Notes: generated from the sequence alone by a model not told the origin. A stretch of 20,000 nt of DNA from an uncultured virus (IMG/VR IMGVR_UViG_3300031555_002006) (IMGVR_UViG_3300031555_002006), one strand, 5' to 3'. Positions 1 through 17,117 are shown, counted from the stretch's first letter. Program-made: numbers and translations.

Positions 1-297
1 TCTTATCACGAGTACCCCGAAGACCCGGCGACGATCTATCTGGATTATGAAATGTTCAGCGGCAAAAACAACCGGCAGCTGCTGAACATCCCCATCCTAA
101 AGCCTGCTGGCGTCCGCATCCGGTTCCGTGCCTACGGCAATTTCGGCATGACGCTCTATATGGGTGGCAGCACTACGCAGATGGCGAAGATCACGTATAT
201 TCAGGATACCCCAGCGGAACTTCCTCAGTATCTCGTCGATGACGAGAACAATATCCTTACGGATGAGCTCGGCAACATTCTTTACGAACTGGAATAG
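1..297 (+). CDS. C-terminal part of phage baseplate/tail protein (5' truncated by window)
   Basis: Frame open from base 1 (SYHEYPEDPATIYLDYEM...ILKPAGVRI...LTDELGNILYELE*). KPAGV motif is typical of baseplate wedge/tail protein I-like proteins; lies directly upstream of a tail-fibre gene. Confidence 0.55.
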   Translation, partial: SYHEYPEDPATIYLDYEMFSGKNNRQLLNIPILKPAGVRIRFRAYGNFGMTLYMGGSTTQMAKITYIQDTPAELPQYLVDDENNILTDELGNILYELE

Positions 298-309
298 AGG
301 TGATTATAA

Positions 310-1368
310 GTGGTCAAAGTTAACATTACCAATTTCGGCAAGGCACTGCTGATTAAGGCGCTCCATAACGAGTCTCCCATCAACTTCGTGTCTATGCAGT
401 TTGGTAACGGTGAAGTACCGGAAAACTACGAAGAGCTTACGGCTCTGATGAACCCTCTGCTCGAGTGCAGCATCTCTTCCATGGAGAAGGGCGATAACTA
501 CATTCAGCTGACATCTGTATTCGATAACAGCAATGTTGAGGCCGACTTCGACATGACAGAGATCGGTGTTTTTGCAGAGGACGCCACCTTGGGCAAGGGC
601 TTGTTCGCCTATGTAAATCAGGAGAACGACTCTGAGCCCGTATATTCCGAGAACTCCAACAAGCTCAAGGAAAACCAGATCTCCGTGCAGATCATTGTGG
701 ATGATGCGGAGAACGTCACAGCAACGGTCAAGTCGCTGGTTTACGCCACCAAGCAGGAGCTCGAGGACCATATCAAAAACTACGAGAACCCTCACCGGGT
801 CACGGCGGCTCAGATCGGCCTTGGTAAGGTAGAAAATACCACTGTTGCCGATGCTGCAGTCAAGTTCACCGCCGCGAAGGAAATGGTGAATATTGAGTCT
901 GGTGAAAAGGTGGCCACCATCTTCGGTAAGATCTACACCGCACTCAAGGCGCTTTTGGCGCACCTTACCGACTACAAGAACCCGCACAAGGTTACGCCTA
1001 TTGATATTAAAGCTGCGGCCGAGGGTCATCTTCACTCTGCAGCTGACATCAAAACCGGCACCTTGGCTGTCGGTCGTGGCGGCACCGGCAGGGAAACTTG
1101 GACGGGAGATCTGCTGATTTATGCAGATACCGCGACGTCGCTTGCTCATGTTACTCGCCCGGCAAAGCTGTCGGTGCTTATGCAGGACTCCTCTGGCAAA
1201 CCCTATTTTCAGGCGTTCGACCAGCTGCAGTTTGTGGCTTCCGGAAGCGCCGCACCTGCGAATACCAATGTCTTCTGGATTGACCCCACACCGGTTACCG
1301 GCGGTCTCAAGTACCATAACGGCTCCGCTTGGGTGCATGTGCCTGTGGGCTATGCTGATGCTGAATAA
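310..1368 (+). CDS. Phage tail fibre protein (tail-collar/DUF3751-like N-terminus)
   Basis: GTG start after GAGGTG RBS. N-terminal ITNFGKALL...MQFGNG...MTEIGVFA...LFAY pattern; fibre motifs NPHRVTAAQIGLGKVEN, NPHKVT, HLHSAADIKTGTLAVGRGGTG. Confidence 0.8.
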   Translation: MVKVNITNFGKALLIKALHNESPINFVSMQFGNGEVPENYEELTALMNPLLECSISSMEKGDNYIQLTSVFDNSNVEADFDMTEIGVFAEDATLGKGLFAYVNQENDSEPVYSENSNKLKENQISVQIIVDDAENVTATVKSLVYATKQELEDHIKNYENPHRVTAAQIGLGKVENTTVADAAVKFTAAKEMVNIESGEKVATIFGKIYTALKALLAHLTDYKNPHKVTPIDIKAAAEGHLHSAADIKTGTLAVGRGGTGRETWTGDLLIYADTATSLAHVTRPAKLSVLMQDSSGKPYFQAFDQLQFVASGSAAPANTNVFWIDPTPVTGGLKYHNGSAWVHVPVGYADAE

Positions 1369-1382
1369 TGGAGGTGAACACC

Positions 1383-1673
1383 ATGGAAACAAAGATCCTG
1401 ATTTCCGAAGAATTGTCGAACTACATCGAAGGCCTGTCTTACAGCGCCGCATCGTTGAGAGATTTGCTGCTTGATGCCGCAGAGCGCGGCTTGCAGGGGT
1501 CTCCCGCTTTCGAGCGCTGGGAGCAGAAATACATCGAGACCGACGCCGAGTTTCAGGTTGCCAAAGGGCAGCTCGAGCGCGAGTATGTGCTCCCTAAAAT
1601 CGGCGACAAGCGTGTCAACTGGACGCTTGACTATAACACCAGAACGGTCACCATCGTGGAGGTGGAGGAATGA
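1383..1673 (+). CDS. CXXX-repeat peptide modification system accessory protein (TIGR04116-like), 96 aa
   Basis: GGAGGTG RBS at 1370-1376, ATG 1383. Helical protein ending in NWTLDYNTRTVTI, resembling the family's W-x-[IL]-D-[FY] C-terminus; overlaps the rSAM start (ATGA). Confidence 0.65.
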   Translation: METKILISEELSNYIEGLSYSAASLRDLLLDAAERGLQGSPAFERWEQKYIETDAEFQVAKGQLEREYVLPKIGDKRVNWTLDYNTRTVTIVEVEE

Positions 1674-3001
1674 GACCTTCCGAGAGCTTCATCGACAGAA
1701 TGTCCAGGCTGTTTCATCCTGCGGAGCTTACCGGGTTCAGCGTCAATTCCTACCACACGAAGAATGTCACGTTTCAGGTAACGGAAGACTGTAATCTTCG
1801 CTGTAGCTATTGCTATCAGGGAGCAAAGACCAGCAAGAAGATGTCCTTCGAGACCGCGAAAGCTATCATGGACATGCTTCTTGCGGCTGACGAGCGTACC
1901 TGCAAATACATCACAACCACCAAGATCACTGGCGTAGTATTCGACTTCATCGGCGGAGAACCCTTTCTCGAGGTTGAATTGATCGACAAGATCATGGATT
2001 ACTTTGTAGAGAGAGCCTTCCTTATGGAGCATCCGCTGGCGAATAAATACATGATAAGCATTTCGACAAACGGAACGCTGTACTTCACTCCGGAGGTACA
2101 GCGTTTTATTGCGAAATGGCACCGGCACCTCTCGCTGTCGATCTCCATTGACGGCAACAAGAAACTCCATGACGCCTGCCGTGTATTCCCGGATGGTTCT
2201 GGCAGTTATGACATTGCCATCGCCGCAGCGAAAGACTACATGGAGCGATACGGGAAGATCGGAAGCAAGATGACGATCTCACCTGAAAACGTGATGTACC
2301 TGAACGACGCTGTGAGAGAACTGCTTGCGAATGGATACAGGGAGATTTATTTGAACTGTGTCTACGAGGAGGGCTGGACCGAAAAGCACGCGAAGATCCT
2401 TTACGAGCAGTTGAAAATGCTTGCAGACGAAGTGGTTGAGATGGAAGAACAGCCCATGCTTTCCATCTTCCAGCAGTACATCGGCCAGCCGATGCCCGAG
2501 AGCGACAATCGAAATTGGTGTGGCGGCACCGGATGTATGCTGGCCTTCGATGCAGATGGGTGCGCCTACCCTTGTCTGCGTTATATGGCAAGCAGCCTTG
2601 CTGGTGCGCAGGAGCCGTATGCCATCGGAGATCTGAACCACGGTATCATGAATACCCCGGAGCATGAGCGGCGTGTGGATCTCCTCGGAAAAATCACACG
2701 CCGCAGTCAATCCACAGACGAGTGTTGGAACTGCCCGATTGCCTCTGGATGCAGCTGGTGCAGCGCATATAATTATCAGGTGTATGGAACACCCGATAAG
2801 CGTGTTACCTATATCTGCATCATGCACAAGGCGCGTGTACTGGCGACCTCGTATTATTGGAACACCTTGCTTCGCAAAAGCGGGAGCGCAAAGCGGTTCG
2901 CCCTCAATGTCCCCGAGTCCTGGGCTGTTCCCATCATCGGTGAGGAGGAGTACAGGATGCTCAAAACCCTTGCGGAGGTGAATGACGATGGCAATGATTG
3001 A
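1670..3001 (+). CDS. Radical SAM/SPASM peptide maturase, CXXX-repeat target family (TIGR04115-like)
   Basis: CNLRCSYC (CxxxCxxC), FIGGEPF, STNG, SISIDG. SPASM cysteines NWCGG...YPCLRY...CWNCPIASGCSWCSAYNY...YICIMHKAR; adjacent to a Cys-repeat substrate. Confidence 0.92.
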   Translation: MRPSESFIDRMSRLFHPAELTGFSVNSYHTKNVTFQVTEDCNLRCSYCYQGAKTSKKMSFETAKAIMDMLLAADERTCKYITTTKITGVVFDFIGGEPFLEVELIDKIMDYFVERAFLMEHPLANKYMISISTNGTLYFTPEVQRFIAKWHRHLSLSISIDGNKKLHDACRVFPDGSGSYDIAIAAAKDYMERYGKIGSKMTISPENVMYLNDAVRELLANGYREIYLNCVYEEGWTEKHAKILYEQLKMLADEVVEMEEQPMLSIFQQYIGQPMPESDNRNWCGGTGCMLAFDADGCAYPCLRYMASSLAGAQEPYAIGDLNHGIMNTPEHERRVDLLGKITRRSQSTDECWNCPIASGCSWCSAYNYQVYGTPDKRVTYICIMHKARVLATSYYWNTLLRKSGSAKRFALNVPESWAVPIIGEEEYRMLKTLAEVNDDGND

Positions 3002-3638
3002 TGCCGCCCGGTTCACAGCCCTCAAGGCTCGTGTCCAAGCTGAATGCCTGCGCCGCAAATATAACGGATCTGTGGTCGATTATGGCGGCGTGGATTACTA
3101 TTTCAAAAACCAGCCTGCCCCCGATACGATTGCAGCAGAGGAACATTTCGAGAAAATCGCCGTCCCCTTAAACGCTATCAACTCCGACAAAATCCCGTAC
3201 ACCGATGGAGATCGCATCATTTCTGACGAAGAAATGACCGCCATGGAAGCGGCTGTGACCCTCTTCGAAACGAGGGCAATGACCGACCGGACACAGGGTG
3301 ATTGCAAGACCAGCTGCACGGGTGCCTGTTATACAGGATGCGCAGGATCTTGTACTGGCGGCTGCGGTTCCAGCTGCTCCGGCACCTGTACCGGCGGATG
3401 CGATGGGTGTTCTGGTTGCTCCGGCTCTTGCCGTGGCGGTTGCCGTGGTTGCGGCTCCGGCTGCGCCTCCGGCTGTTCCGGGACCTGTTCTGGCACATGT
3501 AAGGGTGATTGCACGATGACTTGCGGTTATGCCGGCTGTGTCGGTTCCTGCATGGGGCTGTGTTACAACGGCTGCACGACCAGCTGCGGTTCCTCTTGCA
3601 GTACCTGCGGCAATACCTGTTCTGGAATTTCACTTTAA
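2988..3638 (+). CDS. CXXX-repeat Cys-rich protein, probable rSAM modification target
   Basis: GGAGGTG at 2974-2980, best-spaced ATG 2988 (2982 and 2994 possible). ~105-aa non-repetitive N-terminus, then 111 aa with 28 Cys, mostly CxxxC spaced and G/S/T rich. Confidence 0.88.
   Translation: MAMIDAARFTALKARVQAECLRRKYNGSVVDYGGVDYYFKNQPAPDTIAAEEHFEKIAVPLNAINSDKIPYTDGDRIISDEEMTAMEAAVTLFETRAMTDRTQGDCKTSCTGACYTGCAGSCTGGCGSSCSGTCTGGCDGCSGCSGSCRGGCRGCGSGCASGCSGTCSGTCKGDCTMTCGYAGCVGSCMGLCYNGCTTSCGSSCSTCGNTCSGISL
3303..3635 (+). repeat. Protein-level Cys-x-x-x tandem repeat (28 Cys)
   Basis: CKTSCTGACYTGCAGSCTGGCGSSCSGTCTGGC...CGNTCSGISL. Confidence 0.9.
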
Positions 3639-3650
3639 GGAGGCTATGTA

Positions 3651-4199
3651 ATGGAAATCACAAGCGCATACGAAATTGCAGTAGCAAACCTCGCTGTCGC
3701 ACTGAGCGAGGATGCGGTGTCCACCGAACAGCGGGCGGAGATCGCAACAGCGGTGGGCGGCGACGTCGACCGCCTTATTGATGTGGTCAATATCTTCATT
3801 GTCCACAACAATTCCAAGATGTACGAGGGGAAAATCACCGCTGCCAAAGCGAAGAGCACCGTGAAAGCGGAATATAACGCTATTGGCCTTGGCGAAGTTG
3901 TGAAATATTACTTCCTCGAGAAACCCATCGAGGTCTTCTATGACCGCGACATTTTCTCCAAGAGCGCACCGACCGAAAAAGTGGAACGCATCAAGGAGAT
4001 TTTCAAGCGCAACCTGTCCTGTCCCAATGACCGCATCCGGGTCGGCGTGGACAGCTACGCGCTGCGCCTGCTCTATCATTTTGGCCTGATTGCAGAGGAT
4101 CTTGAGTTCACCAAGAAGCTCATGATCCAGATCAACAGCTACAGCACCGATCATAAGGAGGCTGCGATCCTGCCGCCTGCAATCGTTACCGAACTGTAA
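3651..4199 (+). CDS. Hypothetical protein, 182 aa
   Basis: AAGGAGG RBS; tightly packed between the Cys-repeat gene and the giant fibre gene; no family recognised. Confidence 0.75.
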   Translation: MEITSAYEIAVANLAVALSEDAVSTEQRAEIATAVGGDVDRLIDVVNIFIVHNNSKMYEGKITAAKAKSTVKAEYNAIGLGEVVKYYFLEKPIEVFYDRDIFSKSAPTEKVERIKEIFKRNLSCPNDRIRVGVDSYALRLLYHFGLIAEDLEFTKKLMIQINSYSTDHKEAAILPPAIVTEL

Positions 4200-4209
4200 G
4201 GAGGATACT

Positions 4210-7200
4210 ATGAGCGACGAAAACAAAGGCATTATTCCTCTTAATGAGAAGCCGGTGTCTGCTTCGGCGGCACTGGCAGATTTTTTTGTAACCGTCATCG
4301 GTGGCAAGGTTCGCCTTGCCACCGTAAAAACCATTGCCGACTGCCTTACCGATGCACAGATCAAGTCCATCGAGGAAGCGGCGAAAGAACTGACGGCCAT
4401 CCTCACAAAGGACGCACAGGATGCCGCGGATAGAGCCGAGGCTGTGGCAACGCGCCTGGAAACCTTCCTCGGAAGTATCCCTGTGGATGTAAAATACGAC
4501 CCGCTGACCTATCTGCTGACCCTGATGAACGAAAACTCTTTGCCCATTGGTCAGGGTACGACCATCAAGGCAGGTATCTCCGACATCCAGATGGTGGTTG
4601 AGAAAAACGAAGAGACTGGCACCAACGATCTCGTGCTCTACGATGGAGACGGCGAGGTTGTGAGCCGCACCCCTCTGCCTGCCGGCGGCGGTGGCGGCGG
4701 TGGTGGAGCGTCCTCCTATTCTATCTCCATCAAGAACCTTATGGACTCTCGTACGGTCAGCGCACCCGCTGGCGCCGCTATTCCGCTGACATTCCTCTAC
4801 ACCTCCGTGGACGAAGATGGCTATGATGACGGAAAGGGTGTTGGCACCATCTGGGTTAACGGCGTTAAAAAGGGCGCGGTTGACATTGTGCAGGGCGAAA
4901 ACACGGTTTATGTGGAGTCCTACATCGGCAGCGGTGCCAATGCCGTCAAAATCACCGTGGAGAACTCTGAAGGAAGCAGCAGAAGCCTTTCCTATACCGT
5001 CAATATCGTGGCACTGAGCGTCACTACCACGCTGGATGCGTACAACGAGTGCAGAGGCGACACGATTTTCTACTACACTCCTATCGGCACCGGCGTAAAG
5101 ACCATTCATTTCTTGATGGATGGCAAGGAGCTCGGTACCGCAGAGGTTTCCACCAGCGGCCGCAGCCAGAGCTACACCATCCCCGCACAGGAGCACGGCG
5201 CACACATCTTCAAGTGCTACGCCGAAATGACCGTATCCGGCGTTACCGTTACGAGTGACCCGATTATTCTTGGCATGGCTTGGATCGACTCTGAAAAATC
5301 CACGCCTATGGTAGTCTCTACGTTTGACGTCAAGGAGGCTACACAGGGCGAAGCTCTGACGATCTCCTACTTGGCATACGACCCGGCAACAGAGGAGACC
5401 ACCGTTACCCGCAGCATCATCGATGCGGACGGAAATATCGTTGAGTCGAAGGCTGTATCCGCTGACCGCACAGAGCAGAAATGGGTTGTGCAGGATTATC
5501 CTGCCGGAGCAATCAAGTTCCGCGTTGCCATCGGCGCCATCGGCGTAGACCTCCCTGTGAACGTCAAGGAGAACTCCATCGTTATCGAGCCCATCACCGA
5601 CAGTTTGGTGCTCGATTTTGACCCCATCGGCCGCAGCAACAAGGAGGACAACCCCGAGAATTGGACCAGCGGCGAAGTTTCCGCTACCTTCTCCGGCGTA
5701 GGTTTCTCCGATGCCGACGGCTGGCTGACGGATGCCGATGGTGCAGCTATGTTCCGCCTGCTCCCCGGAGGTCAGATGACCATTCCGTTCCATCTGTTTG
5801 CCACCGACTGCAGAGATACTGGCGCGACCGTCGAGGTCGAAATGGCAACGCACAATGTCCGCGACTACGACAGCGTGGTTATGTCCTGCTTGTCCGGGAA
5901 CCGCGGCTTTATGATCGCAAGCCAGTATGCCGAACTCCACAGCGAGCAGAGCAGCATTTCCAAGCAGTTCAAAGAGGATAAGAAGGTTCGCGTCTCCTTC
6001 GTGGTCGAACCCCGTAACCTCCACCGCATGATTTATGTGTATGTGGACAGCGTCATGTGCGGTGCTATCCAGTACCCTGCAGATGACAACTTTGCACAGT
6101 CTCCGGCCACCGGCATCACCATCGGCGCCGAGTCGAGCGGCATTGATGTCTACCACATTCGTCTGTACAGGAAGGGCCTGACTCGCTTCGAGATCCTCGA
6201 TAACTTTGCAGCAGATCGCCCCACTCTGAAGGAGCGCATCGATGCGCATAAGCGCAATGATATTTTCAACGAGTCCGAAGAGGTCGTTATCACGAAGCTG
6301 CCTGTCACTCTCCCGTACATGATTATCTCCTGTCCCGAGCTGCCGCAGTCCAAGGGCGATAAGAAGACGTGCGAGATCACTTATGTTGACCCGGCCAATC
6401 CTGCAAAGAGCTTTACGGCTTCTGGTGTCACCATCGATGTTCAGGGTACGTCTTCTGCCGGCTACAAGAAGAAGAACTGGAAGATCACCTACAAGAATGG
6501 CCTGACGCTCACGGCCAGCGGAGAGCAGGTCTCCGAATACCAGCTGCGCAGCACATCCGTCCCGGCGTCCTGTTTCTGCATGAAAGCAGACGTCGCATCG
6601 AGCGAAGGCGCCAACAATGTCGAGCTGGTTCGCTTGTATAACGACACCGTTCCTCACAAGACTCCTCCCCAGGAAGAGAATGCCAACGTCCGTGTCGGCA
6701 TCGACGGCCTGCCCTGCGTCATTTTCTGGCAGAACAGCAGCACCGGCGAACTTCGGTTCTGGGGTAAGTACAACTTCAACGACGAGAAGTCCTCCACCCA
6801 AGTCTACGGCTTAACCGAAGGCTGTGAGAGCTGGGAGATCAAGAACAACACCTCCAACCGTGTCATCTTCAAGAGTGCTGACTTCTCCGGAAGCGGCTGG
6901 CTCAATGACTTCGAAGCTCGTTATCCTGACGGCAATGAAGATCCTTCCAAGCTGAAAGTCATGTGTGAGTGGGTTGTTTCCACTGATCGCGCAGCCGCTA
7001 CCGGTAATTCTTTGGGCAAGACTGTTACCTATGGCGGTGTAAGTTACACCAACGATACCGCAGAATATCGCCTTGCCAAGTTCAAGGCTGAGTTCGAGGA
7101 ACACTTCGTCAAGGTCCCCATGCTCTATTACTATCTGTTCACCGAGACCTTCCTGATGGTCGATAACAGAGCGAAGAACTTCTTCCCCAGCACCTTTGAT

Positions 7201-10200
7201 GGTGTCCACTGGCTGCCCCTGCCTTACGACATGGATACTGCCATGGGTATCAACAACGAAGGCCAGCTGGTCTTCGAGTACGACCTTGAGGATACCGACA
7301 CAGTCGGCGGCGCAGACGTTTTCAATGGCCAGAGCTCCGTACTTTGGTGCAACATCCGCGACGCTTTCCCCGATGAACTCAAGGCTCTGTATGGCGAGCT
7401 CCGTGGTGGCTCCATGTTCAACTACTCCGAGGTCGTTAATCGCTGGGCCAGCCATCAGGCCACATGGCCCGAGGCGATCTGGAACGAGGATGCGTGGGAG
7501 AAGTACCTTGAGCCGTTGGAGAATGACAACGACAGCGGCTATCTGGCTATGCTGCAGGGCGACAAAAAGAGCCAGCGCGAGTGGTGGGTCTTCAACGGCT
7601 TCCGCTACCGCGACTCCAAGTACGAGTGCGGCGATGCCGAGGCAAGCTATATCACGCTCCGCTGCTATGCGGTCGGTGATATTACCATCACCCCGTACAG
7701 TCATATTTGGAGCCGCATTAAGTTCGGTTCCTACACCGTCAAGGCTCGCAGCAAGCGCAACCAGGCGGTCACCCTCAAGTGCCCTCTGGACGAGATGAAT
7801 GATACCGAAACCTATATCTACTCTTCTGACAGACTTGCCAAGATCGGAGATCTGAGCCATCTTCACGTCGGCTATGCGAACTTCGTCATGGCTCCCAAGC
7901 TGCAGGTGCTCAAGCTGGGCGACGGTGCCGCTGATTATCAGAATACCCGCCTGAATGAGCTGTATGTCGGCAACAACGATCTGCTCGATGAACTGGATGT
8001 CCGTAACTGTGTCAATCTGAAAATGCCCGTAGATCTGACGGGATGCGTCGGCATTGAGACCATCCGCGCTACCGGCACGGCAATCGACTCCGTCAAACTC
8101 CCGGTTGGCGGCAAGCTGAAAACGCTGGAACTCCCTGGCACCGTAACGAACCTGACTATTCGCGATCACGCACAGTTGTCCTCCTTCACCATGGAGGGCT
8201 ACGGCGAGATCCAGACTCTGCGCATCGAGAACACCCCCAACATCCCCTGGGAGGCTCTTATTAACGGCGCAGAAAAACTCAACCGTGTCCGCATCATCGG
8301 AGCGGAGTGGACGGCCAGCAGCGCCGAAGCATTGCAGGAAACCTACGACCGTCTGAGCGCGGCCGCTGGTATGAATGCTGCCGGCGACAATACCGACAAG
8401 GCTGTCGTTACCGGCCGAGTTGTGCTGAAGAGCGACATCGATGCAGATCTTCTGGCAGCTTTCACCGAAAACTTCCCCGACCTTCTGATCGTCGCCAACG
8501 GTATCGCAAACTGCACCGTCCGTTTCCGTAACTGGGATGGCACCGTGCTTCATACCACCACCGTTGCTTACGGCTCCGACGTCGCAGATCCTGTGGCAAA
8601 CGGCACCATCGACGCTCCTGTTCGCGCTGCATCTGACCGCGTGGTCTATGTCTTCAAGGGCTGGGATCGCGATCTGACGAACATCACGAACAACGCCGTC
8701 TTTACTGCGGTGTTCGAGGAGCAGTACGCATGGATTGTCACCTTCTGCAACTGGGACGGCTCCGAGCTGTGCAAGGTTTCCGTCCAGAATGGCGGCGCCG
8801 CGGCAGATCCTATCGAGTCTGGCCTTATCAGTACACCCGCCCGACCGGGCGACGCCGATTACGCCTATACCTTCCTTGGTTGGGACAAGTCCATCTACAA
8901 TGTCACCGAGGACCGCACGATCACTGCCCGGTACTCCACCGAGGCATCCGTGGCCGTCAGCTTCGTTGACTGGGATGGCACTGTGCTGTACACCGCCTAT
9001 TGCGCGGCCGGCAGCAGCATTGCCGACCCGATCCTGGCTGGTCACATCACGGCGCCCGTTAGAGCCACCGACGAAAGCGCTCAGAAAGAGTATACCTTTA
9101 CCGGATGGGATAAGGAACTGTCCAATATCACTGAGGCCACTACAGTCACGGCGACCTATTCCTCCAAGAGCTACTACACAGCGACCTTCCAGAACCCTGA
9201 TGGCACCGTGCTGTTTGTTCGCAGACTCTACGCCGGCAACGCCGTCAAGGACCCCGTTGCCACCGGCGAGATCGAGACTCCTACGCAGGAGCCTACCGAG
9301 ACCTATGGTTATATCTACAAAGGCTGGGACAAGACGCTCACGTCCAGTATTTCCGCCAACGTGGTCTATACGGCAACATACAAGACCGACCAGCAGTTTA
9401 CCGTCACCTTCGTGGATTACGACGGCACTGTGCTTGATACGCAGCTCGTCTATGACGAGGATGGCGCTGTTGACCCCGTTACCTCTGGACGTATCGCAAC
9501 GCCTGTTCGCGCTTCCACCGCTCAGTATGAGTATAAGTGGACCGGCTGGTCTGGCACCTTCACTAACATTACGGCAGATAAGACCATCACTGCGACCTAC
9601 AGCACCACAACCCGCACTTATACCGTCACCTTCTGGAATGGTTCTACCCTCGTGCAGACTGTGGCAAACGTGGCTTATGGCGGCAGTGCTACCTACACGG
9701 GAGATCCTGTTTCCAAGCCCGATGTTGATGATCCTGACAGTTACGTGCATGTCGGTTGGACACCCTCGCCGACCAGCATCACCGGCGATACAGCCTGCTA
9801 CGCTGTCTACGTCGCCCTCCCCGAAGGCTTCAGCGATGCCTATGGTGTTCTTTGGGCTTACGGTCAGTCGAGCACAGCTCTTGGCCGCCTGGGTCTGGCA
9901 AAAACCTTTGTCAATCCCATTCCCGCAACCAGCCTGACCGACGAGGGCAGCAGCCCCTTCGACGATGTCATGCCTTGGGCCGGTATGAAGAAGTACAACA
10001 TCATCGATGGTGCCATTGCGTACTCTGAGGATGACGAGGGCTTCTCCATGACCGATTACGATACGGTGGTCTACATCCCCGAGTTCTGGTTCAAGGCGGC
10101 GAAGGATACCAGCGCCGAAACATGGGTTTGGGCGATCTCGCCCACCGAGAAGGAAGGCTTCACGAAGCATCCCGGCAGTGGTCGCTATATCGGCCGTTAT

Positions 10201-10884
10201 CATACCTCTGGCGACAGCTCGGCAGTATTCTCTAAATCCGGTGTAGCCCCGCTGGTCAACACCAGCCGTACCAATTTCCGCACCTACAGCCACAACAAGG
10301 GTGATAAGTGGTGGATGCTTGACATTGCCACTTGGAGCGCCTTGCAGATGCTGTACCTGATTGAGTTCGCAGACTTCCACTCTCAGAACACATTGGGTAA
10401 AGGCTATGGCTCCAGTTCTCAGGTCAGCGGCGCAAGTGACGGTGCTGTATACCACACCGTCAACGGCGGCAACACTTACAACCAGTACCGTTGGGTCGAA
10501 CAGCCCTTCGGCCGTGTTATGGACTGGGTCGATGGCTTTATGGCATCTTCCCGAAAGTGCTACCTGGGCACCGACAATGCTACCTTTGCGGACAGTACCT
10601 CGGCGCTTACCGCAGCCGGCGTAACTCTGCCTTCCTCCAACTACATCACCGGCTTCGGATACAGCGAGGAGTTCCCCTGGGCATTCCTGCCTGATGAAGC
10701 TTCTGGCGGTAGCGCTTCCACGTTCGTTCCCGACTATGTGTACTCGTTCTCTGGCATCAATGCGCTGTATGTCGGCGGCAACTATTACAGCCTCGACCTC
10801 TACGGCTTCTGGTACTTCTATGCGAACAACTCTGCGACCAACACGTACGGCAGCCTCGGCTCCCGACTCCTTTATATCCCCTAA
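4210..10884 (+). CDS. Giant multidomain phage tail/adhesin protein, DGR target (CotH-kinase-like domain, LRR, 6 Flg_new-like repeats, C-terminal CLec-type variable domain)
   Basis: AAGGAGG RBS; 2224 aa; poly-Gly linker; beta-rich domains. CotH-like motifs VQGTSS..KKN, KAD..SS..NN, DNRAKN, YDMDTAMG; LRR-like LxxLxL stretch; C-terminal YVGGNY...GFWY...GSLGSRL overlaps the VR. Confidence 0.9.
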   Translation: MSDENKGIIPLNEKPVSASAALADFFVTVIGGKVRLATVKTIADCLTDAQIKSIEEAAKELTAILTKDAQDAADRAEAVATRLETFLGSIPVDVKYDPLTYLLTLMNENSLPIGQGTTIKAGISDIQMVVEKNEETGTNDLVLYDGDGEVVSRTPLPAGGGGGGGGASSYSISIKNLMDSRTVSAPAGAAIPLTFLYTSVDEDGYDDGKGVGTIWVNGVKKGAVDIVQGENTVYVESYIGSGANAVKITVENSEGSSRSLSYTVNIVALSVTTTLDAYNECRGDTIFYYTPIGTGVKTIHFLMDGKELGTAEVSTSGRSQSYTIPAQEHGAHIFKCYAEMTVSGVTVTSDPIILGMAWIDSEKSTPMVVSTFDVKEATQGEALTISYLAYDPATEETTVTRSIIDADGNIVESKAVSADRTEQKWVVQDYPAGAIKFRVAIGAIGVDLPVNVKENSIVIEPITDSLVLDFDPIGRSNKEDNPENWTSGEVSATFSGVGFSDADGWLTDADGAAMFRLLPGGQMTIPFHLFATDCRDTGATVEVEMATHNVRDYDSVVMSCLSGNRGFMIASQYAELHSEQSSISKQFKEDKKVRVSFVVEPRNLHRMIYVYVDSVMCGAIQYPADDNFAQSPATGITIGAESSGIDVYHIRLYRKGLTRFEILDNFAADRPTLKERIDAHKRNDIFNESEEVVITKLPVTLPYMIISCPELPQSKGDKKTCEITYVDPANPAKSFTASGVTIDVQGTSSAGYKKKNWKITYKNGLTLTASGEQVSEYQLRSTSVPASCFCMKADVASSEGANNVELVRLYNDTVPHKTPPQEENANVRVGIDGLPCVIFWQNSSTGELRFWGKYNFNDEKSSTQVYGLTEGCESWEIKNNTSNRVIFKSADFSGSGWLNDFEARYPDGNEDPSKLKVMCEWVVSTDRAAATGNSLGKTVTYGGVSYTNDTAEYRLAKFKAEFEEHFVKVPMLYYYLFTETFLMVDNRAKNFFPSTFDGVHWLPLPYDMDTAMGINNEGQLVFEYDLEDTDTVGGADVFNGQSSVLWCNIRDAFPDELKALYGELRGGSMFNYSEVVNRWASHQATWPEAIWNEDAWEKYLEPLENDNDSGYLAMLQGDKKSQREWWVFNGFRYRDSKYECGDAEASYITLRCYAVGDITITPYSHIWSRIKFGSYTVKARSKRNQAVTLKCPLDEMNDTETYIYSSDRLAKIGDLSHLHVGYANFVMAPKLQVLKLGDGAADYQNTRLNELYVGNNDLLDELDVRNCVNLKMPVDLTGCVGIETIRATGTAIDSVKLPVGGKLKTLELPGTVTNLTIRDHAQLSSFTMEGYGEIQTLRIENTPNIPWEALINGAEKLNRVRIIGAEWTASSAEALQETYDRLSAAAGMNAAGDNTDKAVVTGRVVLKSDIDADLLAAFTENFPDLLIVANGIANCTVRFRNWDGTVLHTTTVAYGSDVADPVANGTIDAPVRAASDRVVYVFKGWDRDLTNITNNAVFTAVFEEQYAWIVTFCNWDGSELCKVSVQNGGAAADPIESGLISTPARPGDADYAYTFLGWDKSIYNVTEDRTITARYSTEASVAVSFVDWDGTVLYTAYCAAGSSIADPILAGHITAPVRATDESAQKEYTFTGWDKELSNITEATTVTATYSSKSYYTATFQNPDGTVLFVRRLYAGNAVKDPVATGEIETPTQEPTETYGYIYKGWDKTLTSSISANVVYTATYKTDQQFTVTFVDYDGTVLDTQLVYDEDGAVDPVTSGRIATPVRASTAQYEYKWTGWSGTFTNITADKTITATYSTTTRTYTVTFWNGSTLVQTVANVAYGGSATYTGDPVSKPDVDDPDSYVHVGWTPSPTSITGDTACYAVYVALPEGFSDAYGVLWAYGQSSTALGRLGLAKTFVNPIPATSLTDEGSSPFDDVMPWAGMKKYNIIDGAIAYSEDDEGFSMTDYDTVVYIPEFWFKAAKDTSAETWVWAISPTEKEGFTKHPGSGRYIGRYHTSGDSSAVFSKSGVAPLVNTSRTNFRTYSHNKGDKWWMLDIATWSALQMLYLIEFADFHSQNTLGKGYGSSSQVSGASDGAVYHTVNGGNTYNQYRWVEQPFGRVMDWVDGFMASSRKCYLGTDNATFADSTSALTAAGVTLPSSNYITGFGYSEEFPWAFLPDEASGGSASTFVPDYVYSFSGINALYVGGNYYSLDLYGFWYFYANNSATNTYGSLGSRLLYIP
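8512..9810 (+). repeat. Six tandem ~73-75 aa Listeria-Bacteroides (Flg_new/InlB-B)-like repeats
   Basis: Units begin at 8512, 8731, 8950, 9175, 9397, 9619 with consensus [YFWC]TVTFx[ND]WDGT...DP...P...Y.F.GWD...N[IV]T....TA.Y. Confidence 0.8.
10737..10872 (+). repeat. DGR variable region (VR)
   Basis: Ungapped 136-nt match to 11104-11239 (offset 367) with 13 mismatches, 12 of them at TR adenines; lies at the 3' end of the target gene. Confidence 0.97.
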
Positions 10885-10891
10885 TGGGGGT

Positions 10892-10911
10892 CCGGGGGTC
10901 GCAACCCCCGG
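10892..10911 (+). promoter_or_regulatory. GC-rich hairpin downstream of VR (probable DGR target-recognition element)
   Basis: CCGGGGGT-CGCA-ACCCCCGG, 8-bp stem starting 8 nt after the target stop codon. Confidence 0.7.
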
Positions 10912-10964
10912 GGCTTCCGTCATAAACCGCCCCGCATCCCAACGGGAAAAATCTATAACGGGGT

Positions 10965-10998
10965 GCGGGGCGAAGCCCCGCCGAATTTTTATATTTTT
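10965..10998 (+). terminator. Hairpin GCGGGGC-GAA-GCCCCGC plus T-rich tract (terminator and/or second DGR hairpin)
   Basis: 7-bp GC stem with GAA loop followed by CGAATTTTTATATTTTT. Confidence 0.55.
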
Positions 10999-11002
10999 CA
11001 CT

Positions 11003-11062
11003 ATAACGTATTTCGTTATTTTCTCACAAAATACTGGCTACCTCGCCGGTTGGGGCTATAAT
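11003..11062 (+). promoter_or_regulatory. Putative promoter/operator for the TR-RT transcript
   Basis: Palindrome ATAACG-N5-CGTTAT at 11003-11019; perfect TATAAT at 11057-11062 with a weak -35 (TGGCTA/CTGGCT). Confidence 0.5.
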
Positions 11063-11103
11063 CTCTCCGGGATTTCCTGCGCGTGCGAGCCGGGCCTGCG
11101 GCT

Positions 11104-11239
11104 TGTGAACTCGAACTCTGGCACCAATGCGCTGTATGTCGGCGGCAACTATAACAGCAACGACAACTACGGCTTCTGGTACTTCAATGCGAACAACTCT
11201 GCGACCAACACGAACGGCAACCTCGGCTCCCGACACCTT
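11104..11239 (+). ncRNA. DGR template region (TR)
   Basis: Copy of the VR with 13 AAY codons in the VR frame; intergenic, directly upstream of the RT. Confidence 0.97.
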
Positions 11240-11355
11240 GTTTCTTCCCGACATTGTGCAGGAAAATCCACACCGCTTGGTGAAAATATTGCCGATAGGA
11301 CAGGGCTTAGTAGGATCTCTCGAAAGGCTCTGAGGCAAACAAGGAGAGAAGTCCT

Positions 11356-12432
11356 ATGCCCAAGAAAGTCGGTCACCTCTACGAAAAGATGTGCGACCGG
11401 GACTTGATCCGCGCAGCCATCATCAAAGGCAGCAAAGGTAAAAAGCGTCGTTGGGACGTGAAGGCCGTTCTTGCCGATGTGGATGGTTATGTGGAAAAAG
11501 TCTATAACCTGTTATCCCAAGAGAAGTACGTGCCGACTCCGCCAAGAGAGAAGCAGATCTTCGACAACAGCTGCCAAAAGCAGCGCATCATTAGCATCGT
11601 GCCGTATTACCCGGACGGCATCATTCATCAGCTTTGTGTTATGGCCATGCAGGAAGTGCTCATGCGCGGAATGTATCGGTGGAGCTGTGCTTCTATCCCG
11701 GGAAGGGGAAATAAGTGCGCCACCGATTATGTCCGGCGAGCATTGAAAAACGACCCCAAAGGCACAAAATACTGCTTGAAGATGGATGTCCACCATTACT
11801 ATCCGAGCATATCCCCACGGCGTCTGATTTGGGCGCTGGCTCGAAAGATCAAGGACAAGCGCTTCTTGAAGATCGTCTTCGAGATTGCGGCGTCAAATCC
11901 CTCCGGTGGCCTCGCCATCGGGTTTTACATCAATCAGTGGCTTGCGAATTACTATCTCGAGCCGCTGGACAACTTCATCCTGACCCTGCCCGGAGTCAAA
12001 TACTATGTGAGAAACATGGATGACATGGTTCTGCTTGGCCCCAACAAAAAGCAGCTCCACCGGGCGAGAAAGGAAATCGAGCGCTTCCTATGGCAGCACC
12101 TCGGCCTGCGGCTCAAGAGAAACTGGCAAGTGTTTCCCGTGGCTGTCCGAGGCATCGACTTTGTCGGCTTTCGCTTTTTCCGTACGCACACCACCATGCG
12201 GCGCCGCAACTTCCTGCGGTTCGCCCGGCAGTGCCGACGGGTCCAGCGCATGATAGATACCAACAGCAAGATCCCGTATCGAGAAGCGGCCGGACTGCTC
12301 GCAAGGGCGGGCCAGCTCAGACATTGTAATGCCCACAAGATACGGGTCGCGTACTTCGACCAAATCGGAGAAAAACGGCTGAAAAGGATCGTCCGCGCTG
12401 AGAGCAAGCGAAGGCTTGAGAATGCTGCGTAG
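11356..12432 (+). CDS. DGR reverse transcriptase
   Basis: AAGGAG RBS; 358 aa, basic. KQRIISIVPYYPDGIIHQ, ASIPGRG, YCLKMDVHHYYPSI, GLAIGFYINQWLAN, YVRNMDD, GIDFVGF; adjacent to the TR/VR pair. Confidence 0.95.
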   Translation: MPKKVGHLYEKMCDRDLIRAAIIKGSKGKKRRWDVKAVLADVDGYVEKVYNLLSQEKYVPTPPREKQIFDNSCQKQRIISIVPYYPDGIIHQLCVMAMQEVLMRGMYRWSCASIPGRGNKCATDYVRRALKNDPKGTKYCLKMDVHHYYPSISPRRLIWALARKIKDKRFLKIVFEIAASNPSGGLAIGFYINQWLANYYLEPLDNFILTLPGVKYYVRNMDDMVLLGPNKKQLHRARKEIERFLWQHLGLRLKRNWQVFPVAVRGIDFVGFRFFRTHTTMRRRNFLRFARQCRRVQRMIDTNSKIPYREAAGLLARAGQLRHCNAHKIRVAYFDQIGEKRLKRIVRAESKRRLENAA

Positions 12433-12442
12433 GAGGATACCC

Positions 12443-12634
12443 ATGTCAAATCTGCAAATGATCGAGACGCTATGCGTCCTGGTCGAACATCAGGCAAGCG
12501 TTATTCATCACCTGTCCGTTCAGCTGGCCGAGGCCCGGTGCCTTACGGAAGCCGAGCAGCAGATGATAGATGCCACCAAAAATGAATACTCGGCGTTTCT
12601 TGGCGCCGGGGAGTTCCTTGACAATCTTGAATAA
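12443..12634 (+). CDS. Small helical protein, 63 aa, co-transcribed with RT
   Basis: AGGAGG at 12431-12436, ATG 12443; MSNLQMIETLCVLVEHQASVIHHLSVQLAE...; followed by a terminator. Confidence 0.75.
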   Translation: MSNLQMIETLCVLVEHQASVIHHLSVQLAEARCLTEAEQQMIDATKNEYSAFLGAGEFLDNLE

Positions 12635-12642
12635 CCTACATG

Positions 12643-12672
12643 AAAGAGCAGCGCGAAAGCGCTGCTCTTTTT
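12643..12672 (+). terminator. Rho-independent terminator
   Basis: AAAGAGCAGCGC-GAAA-GCGCTGCTCTTTTT. Confidence 0.85.
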
Positions 12673-12694
12673 CTATGCAGAAAGGAGCTTACCT

Positions 12695-12820
12695 ATGGAA
12701 GATCGTTGTGTGTGCTGCGGCGCCATCGTTCCCGAGGGCAGAATGGTTTGCCCCATGTGCGAAAAGGAGGCCGATGCCAAAATCTCTCGGGAAGGAGGTG
12801 GTGCGAATGGTAACTCTTAA
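12695..12820 (+). CDS. 41-aa zinc-ribbon microprotein (not in ORF track)
   Basis: AAAGGAG RBS; MEDRCVCCGAIVPEGRMVCPMCEKEADAKISREGGGANGNS* (CxxC...CxxC). Confidence 0.7.
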   Translation: MEDRCVCCGAIVPEGRMVCPMCEKEADAKISREGGGANGNS

Positions 12821-13151
12821 CGTTGGCAGCCTCGTCCTTGCCTTCATCGCCGCCATGGGCATCCCCAGTGCGATCATGGGCATCATTGTGAGACGTATGG
12901 AAAAGCGTATCGCAAAGAGGGACGAGGCCAGAGAAGCAAAGGACAAAGCTCAGGAGCAGCTGCTCCTCCTGATTGTCCAGAGCAACGGAGCGGCTATCGC
13001 TCTGGGCGAGGCAACCGCCCGGGCTGTTCAGCGTATCCCCGATGCCCATTGCAATGGGGATATGCACGAAGCCTTGGCGTATGCCACAAAGGTTAAACAT
13101 GAGCAGAAGGATTTCTTAGCAAAGCAGGGTATTCATGCCCTGGCAGAATGA
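12807..13151 (+). CDS. Single-TM plus coiled-coil lysis-module membrane protein (holin-like)
   Basis: GGAGGTG RBS, ATG 12807 (MVTLNVGSLVLAFIAAMG...); N-terminal hydrophobic helix then charged coiled coil. Confidence 0.65.
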   Translation: MVTLNVGSLVLAFIAAMGIPSAIMGIIVRRMEKRIAKRDEAREAKDKAQEQLLLLIVQSNGAAIALGEATARAVQRIPDAHCNGDMHEALAYATKVKHEQKDFLAKQGIHALAE

Positions 13152-13163
13152 AAGGAGTAAATT

Positions 13164-13487
13164 ATGTTCGACATTACTGACATCATCCTGGCGGCTTTGG
13201 CGCTGGTGTCTGTCATTATCTCCACGGTTGTGGTTCCTTATGTCAAATCCAAGACCTCTGCGCAGCAGCAGGCAGAGATCAACTCTTGGGTCAAGATCGC
13301 CGTGTCTGCTGCCGAGCAGATCTATGTCGGCTCCGGCCGCGGCGCAGAGAAGAAACAGTATGTTCTTGATTGGCTGCATCAGCGCAATATCACCGTTGAC
13401 GAAACCAAGCTGGATGCCATGATCGAGAGTGCTGTGTATGCCCTGAAGACCAGTGGCCTTGTCGCCTTGGAGGTAACCAATGGTTAA
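13164..13487 (+). CDS. Phage holin (LL-H family-like)
   Basis: N-terminal TM; VKIAVSAAEQ...GRGAEKKQYV...LDAMIESAVY. Confidence 0.85.
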   Translation: MFDITDIILAALALVSVIISTVVVPYVKSKTSAQQQAEINSWVKIAVSAAEQIYVGSGRGAEKKQYVLDWLHQRNITVDETKLDAMIESAVYALKTSGLVALEVTNG

Positions 13488-13752
13488 CATCATCGAAAAG
13501 GGCGGCTACCTCGTCGATGCCGCCACCGGCCAGAAGGTCGTTTTCTATGAGTGTGACCCCGAGAAGAACACCGAGTGCGGCAAACAGATGTGCCGTCACG
13601 ATGCCGCAGAGGACGAGGGCGGCTTCGGTTTTTGCGCCAAGACTGATAACCCCGCCTTCCGCAAAGACGGCGGTAGGGCTTGGTATGCGGTCAAAAAGAC
13701 CCCTGACGAGGGTGAGCCTTATTGGGGGCGTGAGTACATCGAGGGGGTGTAA
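13480..13752 (+). CDS. Hypothetical protein, 90 aa (4 Cys)
   Basis: GGAGG RBS; overlaps the holin stop and ends 3 nt before the endolysin. Confidence 0.7.
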   Translation: MVNIIEKGGYLVDAATGQKVVFYECDPEKNTECGKQMCRHDAAEDEGGFGFCAKTDNPAFRKDGGRAWYAVKKTPDEGEPYWGREYIEGV

Positions 13753-13755
13753 GCC

Positions 13756-14601
13756 ATGATGTCTGTTGCTGAATGCCTCGCCTATGTCGAGAGTCATCTG
13801 GAAGTGCGCATTGCCACCCAGAACGGTGCATGGAGATCTGGTCGCAAGATCAACCCCGATGGCTCGGTTAACCATTCTGTCGGCTGCGCCCAGCCCAGCG
13901 TCGATGTCTTTTTCAATCTCATGAATAAGACGAGCGCCGGTTGGGGCGTAAACGCCCTTCTGGGCGACTTCCATAAGGGCGAGGGTCGCATCATTCTTGC
14001 CCTTGATATGAACACCCGCCCCTGGGGCTGCGGTTCCGGTCCGAAAGGATCTTGGAACAACAGCAAGATCCAGTGGGAGGTCTGCGAGCCTGCCGGTCAC
14101 ACTTACGCAGGCGGCACCATGATCGGGTACGACGTGGCGAAAAACACACCGTACTTCGAGCGCATGTGGAAGATGCTCGTGGCGTGGAACGTCTATTGCG
14201 TGGTCAAGCTGGGCTATCCCGTGGATGGTATCAGAGATCACGCCGAGTCCCACAAAGCCGGCTATGGCTCCAATCATGGTGATATGGGCCACTGGCTCCC
14301 GAAGCACGGTAAGAGCATGGACGCCCTCCGGGCAGAAGTGCGCAACATTCTGAATAACAAAGAGGAGGACGACGATATGGATGTCGCAAGATTTAAGGAA
14401 CTGTTCGATGAAATGCGCAAGGAGCTCCGCGACAACGACTCCAGCGAATACTCCGAGGAGGCTCGCGCCTGGGCTGTCGATACCGGCATCATTCAGGGCG
14501 GCGATGCCAAGGAGTTCAACGGCATGTGGGAGGATATGATGACCCGCGAGCAGCTGGTCACCGTTCTGTTCCGCTTTGCCAAACTCGTTGGCCTTGCGTG
14601 A
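13756..14601 (+). CDS. Endolysin, N-acetylmuramoyl-L-alanine amidase (Amidase_2-like) with C-terminal SLH-like segment
   Basis: NHSVGCAQP, RPWGCG, WEVCEP, DHAESHKAGYGSNHGD; C-terminal ARAWAVDTGIIQG...MTREQLVTVLFRF; follows the holin. Confidence 0.85.
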   Translation: MMSVAECLAYVESHLEVRIATQNGAWRSGRKINPDGSVNHSVGCAQPSVDVFFNLMNKTSAGWGVNALLGDFHKGEGRIILALDMNTRPWGCGSGPKGSWNNSKIQWEVCEPAGHTYAGGTMIGYDVAKNTPYFERMWKMLVAWNVYCVVKLGYPVDGIRDHAESHKAGYGSNHGDMGHWLPKHGKSMDALRAEVRNILNNKEEDDDMDVARFKELFDEMRKELRDNDSSEYSEEARAWAVDTGIIQGGDAKEFNGMWEDMMTREQLVTVLFRFAKLVGLA

Positions 14602-14912
14602 TGGCGGGTAAGCGAGAGAAAAAGCGCCAGAAGCGCGAATGGAGTAAGATCTTCCCCCTCATTGTGGTGCTGCTTGGCTTCGTGATCGCACAAGAGTGCT
14701 TGGTGCTTATGGTACTCTGCGTAATCAGGGGCTATACGGCAACCGCAGCGTGGCTCACAGCCGCAGTCGGTTTGGCCGAGGCCGTCATAGGCCTTGGCCT
14801 GAACAGCTACATGAGCCTTGCAAAATCCGACCACAAAGAGGGTGGCATCACCTTCGAAGCTGCCAAAGCGAAAGGCTTTGAGCGCCCGGACGGGAACAGC
14901 CCGCCCATCTAA
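14601..14912 (+). CDS. Two-TM membrane protein of the lysis module
   Basis: ATG overlaps the endolysin stop (TGATG); basic N-terminus MAGKREKKRQKREWSK and two hydrophobic helices. Confidence 0.7.
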   Translation: MAGKREKKRQKREWSKIFPLIVVLLGFVIAQECLVLMVLCVIRGYTATAAWLTAAVGLAEAVIGLGLNSYMSLAKSDHKEGGITFEAAKAKGFERPDGNSPPI

Positions 14913-14918
14913 AATACC

Positions 14919-14969
14919 AGCCCCCGTGCACTATTGGGTCTCCCTTAGTGCGCGGGGGCTTCTTTTTTT
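14919..14969 (+). terminator. Rho-independent terminator ending the lysis operon
   Basis: AGCCCCCGTGCACTA...TAGTGCGCGGGGGCT followed by TCTTTTTTT. Confidence 0.8.
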
Positions 14970-15071
14970 ATGCTCCTACGTCCGAATTTATAACCTGTTT
15001 CGTGATAATCTGACAATTTACAATCTGATATGACAGGAACTGTTATATTATACGAGAGGAGCGCTAAAGAC

Positions 15072-15329: not shown

Positions 15330-15384
15330 GAGGACCTGTTTTCCGCCTGCTTGCTCCCTTTGTGCCTTGATTGGGACGCAGAAA

Positions 15385-16131: not shown

Positions 16132-16141
16132 GGTGTCCTCC

Positions 16142-17116: not shown

Positions 17117-17117
17117 T

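Follow-up and report, generated by a model that had tools for sequence, protein, structure and literature searches.

A cassette that pairs a radical S-adenosylmethionine (SAM) enzyme with a cysteine-ladder protein lies at positions 1383-4199 of a 20,000-nucleotide stretch of DNA from an uncultured virus (IMG/VR IMGVR_UViG_3300031555_002006). The whole stretch, referred to here as the window, forms the right-hand end of a prophage. In the reading that is favoured here, to which a probability of about 0.5 is assigned, the enzyme modifies a protein of the phage tail module by installing thioether bridges, and the product, once matured, is kept intact in the tail-fibre apparatus. The cassette is most likely a late-operon module in the prophage of a gut Clostridia bacterium. 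An earlier sequence-only reading had proposed that the phage cross-links one of its structural proteins with chemistry known from peptides that are made by ribosomes and modified after translation (RiPPs). The identity of the maturase, the linkage to tail genes, the absence of a protease or exporter, and the ladders that reach 968 aa or are fused to adsorption-type domains are in line with that proposal, whereas the accessory protein and the target fall short of the cut-offs of the curated partner families. The genes concerned, with the two parts of the ladder protein, are as follows.

310-1368, + strand: tail fibre, 352 aa; PF12571 N-terminal tail-collar fibre domain (E 3.7e-8) and phrog_7037 tail fibre (E 1.4e-26)
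1368-1673 (alternative start 1383), + strand: accessory protein, 101 aa, directly upstream of the radical SAM gene
1670-3001, + strand: predicted radical SAM/SPASM maturase, 443 aa; TIGR04115 and phrog_1802
2982-3638 (second ATG at 2988), + strand: ladder protein, 218 aa, 29 Cys
2982-3299, + strand: head domain of the ladder protein, residues 1-106, from an AlphaFold2 (AF2) model
3303-3620, + strand: cysteine ladder, residues 108-213, 28 Cys in units of 3-5 residues
3651-4199, + strand: 182-aa orphan protein, marginal match only

The positions and the + strand given for all four cassette genes in the sequence-only reading are borne out; its starts at 1383 and 2988 are alternative starts, the latter at the second ATG, and for the accessory gene the starts at 1383 and 1368 are equally plausible. 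The tail fibre that it placed at 310-1368 is confirmed by the PF12571 and phrog_7037 matches.

The enzyme was compared with hidden Markov models (HMMs) and solved structures. A score of 470.7 bits is obtained against the NCBIfam model TIGR04115, "radical SAM peptide maturase, CXXX-repeat target family" (cut-off 350), and the full model (1-359 of 359) aligns with residues 30-396. By this score the enzyme is a TIGR04115-type CXXX-repeat maturase. A match to phrog_1802 appears at E 2.9e-70. The radical SAM motif C41-x3-C45-x2-C48 (CxxxCxxC) is complete and invariant in an alignment of nine sequences that includes relatives, and residues C284, C302, C352, C355, C361, C364, and C383 are likewise invariant. 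The cysteines of the latter region are spaced as CX12GX4C ... CX2CX5CX2C ... C, which is the spacing expected of a SPASM domain. Lower scores are found for the models of PapB (185.2 bits, E 1.8e-54, cut-off 340), CcpM (115.8 bits, cut-off 500), the QhpD-type family TIGR03906 (110 bits, E 1e-31, cut-off 453), and the SCIFF maturase (107.5 bits, cut-off 425), all of them below cut-off. The closest solved structure is CteB (5wgg) at E 2.5e-21, where residues 31-370 of the enzyme pair with residues 97-424 of CteB. The N-terminal part of CteB is a RiPP recognition element (RRE), a leader-binding domain, according to PMC8326336. No RRE-sized N-terminal domain is present in the window enzyme, where the SAM motif begins at residue 41 and leaves no room for an RRE of ~96 residues.

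The families TIGR04114, TIGR04115, and TIGR04116 had been named in the sequence-only reading. Comparison with the HMMs upheld TIGR04115 for the enzyme, whereas the accessory protein and the target score below the cut-offs of TIGR04116, TIGR04114, and TIGR04117.

In large viral contigs the radical SAM genes are interrupted by inteins (L035, 5983-7944; L037, 4825-7176; L038, 5362-7521). These contain Hint and Intein_splicing domains, one of them with a LAGLIDADG domain, and are inserted at or near the CxxxCxxC motif. The radical SAM gene at 6421-8304 of L045 looks split in a similar way.

The ladder protein contains 29 cysteines. One of these, C22, is located in the N-terminal part, and the other 28 form an array within the 106 residues from 108 to 213, so that the 28-Cys CxxxC protein described earlier is confirmed with one cysteine more outside the array. 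All units of the array but one are 3 or 4 residues long (27/28), and the remaining unit has 5. The spacers are rich in G, S, and T. At least one S, T, N, or D is found in 24 of the 28 units, and residues of these types are acceptors in characterized ranthipeptides. When 120 distinct ladder proteins are pooled, successive cysteines are spaced by 4 in 3334 cases and by 3 in 1040; S, T, and G predominate in the spacers, and Gly accounts for 40% at the middle position. In 47 relatives none of the first nine Cys columns varies. At the DNA level the array is no tandem repeat, since Tandem Repeats Finder returns only 2.2 copies of a 12-nt unit, and the periodicity is therefore maintained at the protein level. 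The match of the window ladder to TIGR04117 is weak (20.5 bits, cut-off 50). At E<=0.01, TIGR04117 is matched by 13 and TIGR04114 by 7 of the 47 relatives. The predicted local distance difference test (pLDDT) score of the ladder in the AF2 model is below 50. The lengths of ladder proteins extend from 64 to 968 aa, and the large viral contigs L035 and L038 contain four to six tandem ladder genes, of which one encodes 968 aa with 104 Cys.

Relatives of the enzyme were collected from two sources. A scan of viral contigs provided 44 relatives (42-55% identity, and one identical 8.8-kb contig). A scan of prokaryotes, with one genome per species, provided 265 relatives, almost all from Clostridia; the best 80 of these were used, and the top ones (66% identity) are from Oscillospiraceae. 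The loci examined comprise 44 viral and 77 bacterial-genome loci. Genes were called in 126 sources (the window and 125 loci) as the longest open reading frames (ORFs), with preference for the strand of the enzyme, and were clustered using BLASTP; this calling is rough and overlooked some genes. Of the 126 sources, 123 contain the enzyme cluster and 88 the head-plus-ladder cluster.

A ladder gene was counted when it was on the same strand as the enzyme gene, encoded 8 or more Cys with 5 or more CxxxC steps, and fell within the flank examined. Such a gene accompanies the enzyme in 109 of 123 sources. It is located upstream of the enzyme gene in 99 sources and downstream, as in the window, in 11. 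The association appears both in bacterial genomes (65 of 77 loci) and in viral contigs (42 of 44). The 124 enzyme genes fall into 89 groups at 90% identity, and the count thus does not derive from one clone, even with one phage group that gives 29 near-identical genes. The closest relatives, L048 and L049, have the exact gene order of the window, the 182-aa gene included. The arrangement is found in over 100 loci and is therefore far beyond chance. Family membership and the conserved gene neighbourhood together make it highly probable that the enzyme and the ladder protein are an enzyme-substrate pair.

Cysteines that recur every 3 or 4 residues and are separated by Gly-rich spacers resemble those of metal-binding proteins. 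The ladder may accordingly be read as a metal- or iron-sulfur-binding protein, or as the target of some other chemistry such as Cys oxidation, epimerization, or C-C coupling. AF2 provides no confident structure for the ladder, and the enzyme also matches the anaerobic sulfatase maturase model (E 4.1e-18) and scores with other SPASM families. The best family and structure matches (PapB, CcpM, QhpD, SCIFF maturase, CteB), however, are all thioether formers, and the co-occurrence of ladder and maturase (109/123) argues that the ladder is a substrate. Metal binding or other chemistry, which would undo the picture of a stapled rod even with the enzyme and the ladder correctly paired, is considered very unlikely.

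The proposed formation of thioethers is taken from the nearest characterized enzymes, and for this part of the favoured reading the odds are about even. In PMC8326336, the CteB, freyrasin, and QhpD systems form thioethers with Thr, Asp, Asn, or Glu as acceptors, freyrasin has six repeated Cys-Asp bridges, and the SPASM enzyme QhpD joins Cys to Asp and to Glu by thioethers within a protein subunit retained in a larger assembly. The PapB/freyrasin and CteB/SCIFF ranthipeptide pathways likewise employ SPASM enzymes, which join the sulfur of Cys to side-chain carbons of residues close by, and supply the best equivalog-level (PapB) and structure-level (CteB) matches to the window enzyme. PapB/freyrasin is the most similar in having repeated bridges, which are predicted here. 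The window differs from these pathways in the PapB score below cut-off, in the absence of an RRE-sized domain and of a CX3D motif, and in its location in a phage tail module; no leader protease or exporter of a ranthipeptide-type pathway appears among the scanned window ORFs. QhpD and its substrate QhpC are the closest precedent for the proposed logic of a retained protein rather than a released peptide. That system differs in that the substrate is an enzyme subunit with few bridges and no long periodic ladder, in being non-viral, and in the TIGR03906 score, which is below cut-off for the window enzyme.

The association with tail modules was surveyed by assigning PHROGs to the 47 neighbour clusters that are found most widely. 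Upstream clusters include baseplate wedge phrog_6 (59 sources) and phrog_120 (41 sources), the tail proteins phrog_521, 48, 400, 52, and 76, the baseplate hub, and tail fibres (phrog_7037). Downstream clusters include holins, endolysins, the reverse transcriptase (RT) of a diversity-generating retroelement (DGR; 26 sources), and Avd. At least one tail- or lysis-labelled cluster is found in 85 of 123 sources. Among the remaining 38, the 20 with more than 12 kb were examined, and 14 of them have tail, lysis, or virion PHROG matches at E<=1e-8. Among them, L088, L077, and L095 have siphovirus-type Dit and Tal genes, L086 encodes a major head protein, and L100 encodes a terminase. The total with tail, lysis, or virion neighbours is 99 of 123 sources, and the tail context spans two tail-tip architectures, myovirus-type and siphovirus-type. 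The sequence-only reading had been staked on homologous cassettes keeping to tail modules, and with baseplate genes counted among these neighbours the survey finds most of them there. A tail-fibre gene is often the immediate upstream neighbour of a ladder gene, and in the window the ladder gene is co-oriented within the tail-fibre block, between the fibres at 310-1368 and 4210-10884.

The window genes from 1 to 14601 (the upstream gene to the endolysin) and two helix-turn-helix (HTH) regulators are all on the + strand. The five genes that span 310-4199 are joined by overlaps or by gaps of 10-12 bases. The stop codon of the fibre and the start codon of the accessory gene overlap by 1 nt, the accessory and radical SAM genes by 4 nt, and the radical SAM and Cys-rich genes by 20 nt. 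The gaps from the Cys-rich gene to the 182-aa gene and from there to the giant fibre are 12 and 10 nt, and GGAGG-type ribosome-binding sites are found there. No promoter-like site was found on the + strand within 310-4210. The lone + strand terminator-like hairpin of the cassette is weak and is located inside the 182-aa gene (3914-3933); over the whole scan, 16 terminator-like sites were found where 11.8 are expected from shuffles, which is near chance. The GC content of the cassette is that of its flanks. Pfam, NCBIfam, and PHROG scans of window ORFs revealed no peptidase or exporter family. These results agree with the tight coupling, the lack of an obvious promoter or terminator between the genes, and the absence of a peptidase or exporter that had been noted in the sequence-only reading.

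The cassette runs in the same direction as the tail-fibre genes, and its translation is coupled to theirs. A moron, that is, an independently transcribed lysogeny gene, was considered and rejected because the codons overlap, the GC content matches that of the flanks, and internal promoter-like sites are absent. The cassette is not an autonomous unit, since these features are joined by the lack of a protease or exporter.

Contigs from two RNA libraries were also compared with the window. Pieces of the cassette appear at 1680-1972 and 2985-3310 in run X20, and run X19 gives low depth across most of the prophage. Carry-over of DNA is possible in both, and the contigs are uninformative about timing.

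In most ladder proteins ~100 residues precede the ladder. An AF2 model based on a 47-sequence alignment gives four helices for this head domain, with a pLDDT of ~90 over residues 8-100. No Pfam or NCBIfam family matches the head. The best PDB representative in a fold search is an N-terminal fragment of LonA (Z 5.6, root-mean-square deviation 3.9 Å, 89 residues), which is at noise level for helical domains, and the matches in BFVD are uncharacterized phage homologues only. A profile of the head was searched against 1.84 billion cluster representatives and retrieved 577 at E<=1e-3 and 368 at E<=1e-10. Among the best 150 of these matches, 115 have a length of 130 aa or more, and ladders are present in 102 of the 115. 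The 13 ladder-less exceptions are mixed: several resemble chimeric gene calls or ladder genes with a frameshift, two look truncated and retain a brief stretch of ladder-type cysteines, and P0133 carries a non-ladder sequence that matches phrog_38190.

All 97 head matches in the collected loci carry ladders. The head is N-terminal in 90 of them, C-terminal in 5, and ambiguous in 2, the ambiguity being due only to cysteines inside the head. The reversed order, a ladder followed by a C-terminal head-like domain, is found at these positions.

L087, 3544-4221
L097, 9154-9894
L101, 9286-10161
L102, 7014-8003
L103, 9721-10686

Further domains are fused to some ladder proteins. In P0136 a domain of ~200 residues of adsorption or tail type is located between the head and the ladder; residues 42-293 match phrog_5499 "host range and adsorption protein" (E 2.5e-14) and phrog_1330 (E 7.8e-12), and the additional domain has a sub-threshold CBM_4_9 match as well as matches to tail protein families. 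P0058 has a C-terminal domain of 180 residues following the ladder, and P0057 and P0084 have further N-terminal domains. The product is read as a protein rather than a peptide because the ladders extend up to 968 aa, the head is folded and can stand at either end, and the fusions are of adsorption type.

In protein P0011 (334 aa), a single reading frame joins a head, a ladder, and a C-terminal part that resembles the accessory. P0011 is either a natural substrate-accessory fusion or a read-through gene call.

The same architecture may be read in another way. An N-terminal segment of ~100 aa followed by a Cys-rich C-terminal core resembles a leader plus a core, the enzyme family is curated as a peptide maturase, and its nearest characterized relatives make ranthipeptides. 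The cassette could on this account make a diffusible RiPP-like product, such as a bacteriocin, a signal, or a peptide directed against competitors, with the head cleaved off as a leader or follower. The Cys-rich core would be freed from the lysogen or at phage lysis, and lysis removes the need for an exporter. The dimensions of the ladders (up to 968 aa with 104 Cys), the occurrence of the head at either end, and the fusion of relatives to adsorption-type and other folded domains argue against a diffusible peptide. The position in the tail-fibre block is also constant across two tail architectures, and the cassette is translationally coupled to structural genes. No protease or exporter was found in the window, nor, by PHROG names, among the 47 neighbour-cluster representatives or the 137 proteins of the 20 further loci. 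A diffusible product is judged unlikely.

Tail-fibre blocks commonly encode chaperones beside the fibres. The ladder protein could thus be a late, unpackaged assembly factor for the neighbouring fibres, acting as a scaffold, chaperone, or length template outside the virion. The location of the cassette between two fibre genes is consistent with such a helper, and so is the length of the ladder, which differs among close relatives: the window has 28 ladder Cys, and L049 and L048 have 36 to 37 Cys in total. An enzyme-dependent covalent modification would, however, be costly for a transient helper, the adsorption-type fusions point to an exposed and functional end product, and no similarity to known tail-fibre chaperone families was found in the Pfam, NCBIfam, and PHROG scans. 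This assignment is distinctly unlikely. A role of the matured ladder protein in the virion is slightly favoured from its position, its coupling to tail genes, its size, the permutable head, and the domain fusions.

The accessory cluster is present in 90 of 126 sources, its place beside the enzyme gene being conserved. The AF2 model of the window accessory (pLDDT 95.6) consists of a short strand, a hairpin of two long antiparallel helices, and then a beta-hairpin. No NCBIfam family matches the window accessory, and TIGR04116 gives no match at E<=1; among its relatives, 5 of 42 match TIGR04116 weakly (best E 0.0052). From its position the accessory appears to behave like a TIGR04116 partner, although by score it is not a curated member. 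Fold searches returned designed or generic helical hairpins (best Z 8.0), and Foldseek found no PDB match at E<=1e-3.

The mechanism proposed for the favoured reading is as follows. The module would be transcribed late together with the tail genes, and the TIGR04115-type enzyme would act on the 28-Cys ladder of the adjacent 218-aa protein. The enzyme is without a CteB-like RRE; substrate handling is probably supplied by the accessory, and the four-helix head is probably a handle, a docking domain, or both. As in CteB, PapB, and QhpD, repeated Cys-to-carbon thioether bridges would be formed, here onto neighbouring Ser, Thr, Asn, and Asp residues. A glycine-rich stretch that is otherwise unstructured would through these bridges become a rigid rod or knot, resistant to reduction and to proteases. 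The matured protein would then stay whole, with neither trimming nor export, and would work in or on the virion tail-fibre apparatus. Disulfides would neither form in the cytoplasm nor persist in the anoxic gut, whereas thioethers would.

Several points weigh against this proposal. No virion proteome of a cassette-bearing phage was found in the literature. True RiPPs can have long helical leaders and C-terminal follower peptides, and the head could be a leader that is removed later; phage lysis would release the product without an exporter. SPASM enzymes catalyse other chemistries too. Asp occupies only 3-5% of any spacer position in the 120 ladder proteins, and with Asp this scarce the CX3D rule of PapB does not apply and the acceptor residue is not fixed by the sequences. 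The only PHROG match of the window ladder protein is phrog_6085 (E 5.4e-4), which has no assigned function, and the fold searches gave generic helical matches only, with a best Z of 5.6 for the head and 8.0 for the accessory. When 79 head domains were compared with all genes of the collected loci using BLAST, no non-ladder or tail-fibre homologue appeared save for one 26-residue N-terminal match to a 630-aa protein in L039/L040. Finally, no tail, lysis, or virion neighbour was seen in 24 of 123 sources. Of these, 18 are loci that are short or were not further examined, and 6 were examined (the viral contigs L035, L038, and L042, and L071, L072, and L109).

The 182-aa protein at the end of the cassette has a marginal match to phrog_15469 (E 0.0017) in the Pfam, NCBIfam, and PHROG scans. 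Its cluster is present in 4 of 126 sources, and a search of 5.8 billion proteins returned 7 clusters, none of them named. No match was found in the protein atlas, and no HMM link was found to the genes downstream of ladder genes in other loci. It is treated, from its distribution, as a lineage-specific neighbour of the nearest relatives and not as part of the conserved system, and its inclusion in the cassette by the sequence-only reading is not sustained.

Among 399 scored genomes of the class of L049, the genome of L049 included, 2 have a match that exceeds the cut-off; this is a lower bound, as the candidates were only partly scored. A distribution as patchy as this is consistent with a mobile element. 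The phage collection contains only two records at ~40% identity, both faecal and unannotated. Jumbo phages of Salmonella and Erwinia and phages of Campylobacter have enzyme matches at 23-28%. In the Salmonella phage SPN3US (L126, 4094-5123), three Cys-ladder ORFs of 130, 134, and 68 aa are flanked by a "virion structural protein" on one side and by two radical SAM genes on the other. A single gene (112 aa) is annotated in this stretch, and it overlaps the second ladder ORF in another reading frame.

The enzyme contigs L052, L080, and L094 come from metagenome-assembled genomes labelled Treponemataceae, Slackia, and Methanobrevibacter, respectively, labels that do not fit a distribution otherwise confined to Clostridia. 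Ladder genes were called in L052 and none were called in L080 or L094. These contigs may be mis-binned phage contigs.

The other features of the window are listed below.

1-297, + strand: 3' end of the upstream gene; no family match in the scans
4210-10884, + strand: giant tail/fibre protein, 2224 aa; phrog_14959 (E 4.2e-131) and, over residues 1770-2224, phrog_5302 tail protein (E 9.8e-53)
10737-10872: DGR variable region (VR), at the C-terminus of the 2224-aa protein
11104-11239, + strand: DGR template repeat (TR), upstream of the RT gene
11356-12432, + strand: DGR reverse transcriptase; phrog_1423 (E 3.4e-100)
13164-13487, + strand: holin
13756-14601, + strand: amidase-type endolysin
+ strand: two HTH regulators
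19592-19999, opposite strand: 3' end of the glutamine synthetase gene (glnA), which marks the host flank

Over 136 nt the VR is 90% identical to the TR, with 13 differences at TR adenines and one C>T. The 2224-aa protein is a true DGR target, and with the RT gene present the giant DGR target named in the sequence-only reading is verified. A 7-bp all-GC hairpin is located just past the target gene (10965-10981). In L049 the 2224-aa protein is represented by two genes (4876-7787) of 347 and 623 aa that a large insertion separates. Run X2 contains a 24-kb metagenome contig that is near-identical to the window over 1-4536 and 8437-15368 and diverged or mosaic over 4536-8437. Together with the split in L049, this divergence indicates that the middle of the fibre varies and that the cassette is conserved. 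Between the lysis genes and glnA (15400-19500), no ORF has a family match except the two HTH regulators, and the AT skew is strongly negative, down to -0.24.

The CXXX-repeat system of NCBIfam (TIGR04115, TIGR04116, TIGR04114, and TIGR04117) shares with the window the enzyme, a small associated protein, and a cysteine at every third or fourth residue. The window set differs in that the accessory has no TIGR04116 match, the ladder is below the TIGR04117 cut-off, the target has a folded head of 100 residues that belongs to no described family, and the genes sit in phage tail modules. The family was reportedly founded by Haft and Basu in 2011 and defined bioinformatically. We know of no biochemical study of it, and to our knowledge no biological role has been assigned to CXXX-repeat systems. 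A search of the literature, which lay outside most subscription journals, found no paper on the tail-module context, the head domain, or protein-sized substrates, and all three appear to be undescribed. The isopeptide "chainmail" of the HK97 capsid is formed by autocatalytic covalent cross-links. The ladder proposed here is alike in that covalent bonds would harden a virus particle, and it differs in that a dedicated radical enzyme and Cys chemistry would act on a tail-module protein, where HK97 employs autocatalytic isopeptides in the capsid.

Radical SAM peptide maturases are usually studied for small natural products. Here such an enzyme is recurrent in the tail-fibre modules of phages and prophages of gut Clostridia, where it is predicted to act on whole proteins of up to nearly 1000 residues. 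Tentatively, phages of anaerobic gut bacteria may build a tail appendage whose shaft consists of enzyme-installed thioether staples in place of a folded protein domain and is anchored by the new four-helix head. If the cross-linking is as proposed, it would be the first case in which an enzyme cross-links a virus structural protein by radical chemistry and the first biological role for CXXX-repeat systems, and the system would be a natural scaffold for stapled proteins. If the part concerning the virion is also correct, it would give a function to a sizeable unannotated family, with 577 cluster representatives of the head domain at E<=1e-3, and would be a new viral route to harden or shape host-recognition structures. 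Thioethers would then serve where disulfides fail, both in the reducing cytoplasm and in the anoxic gut.

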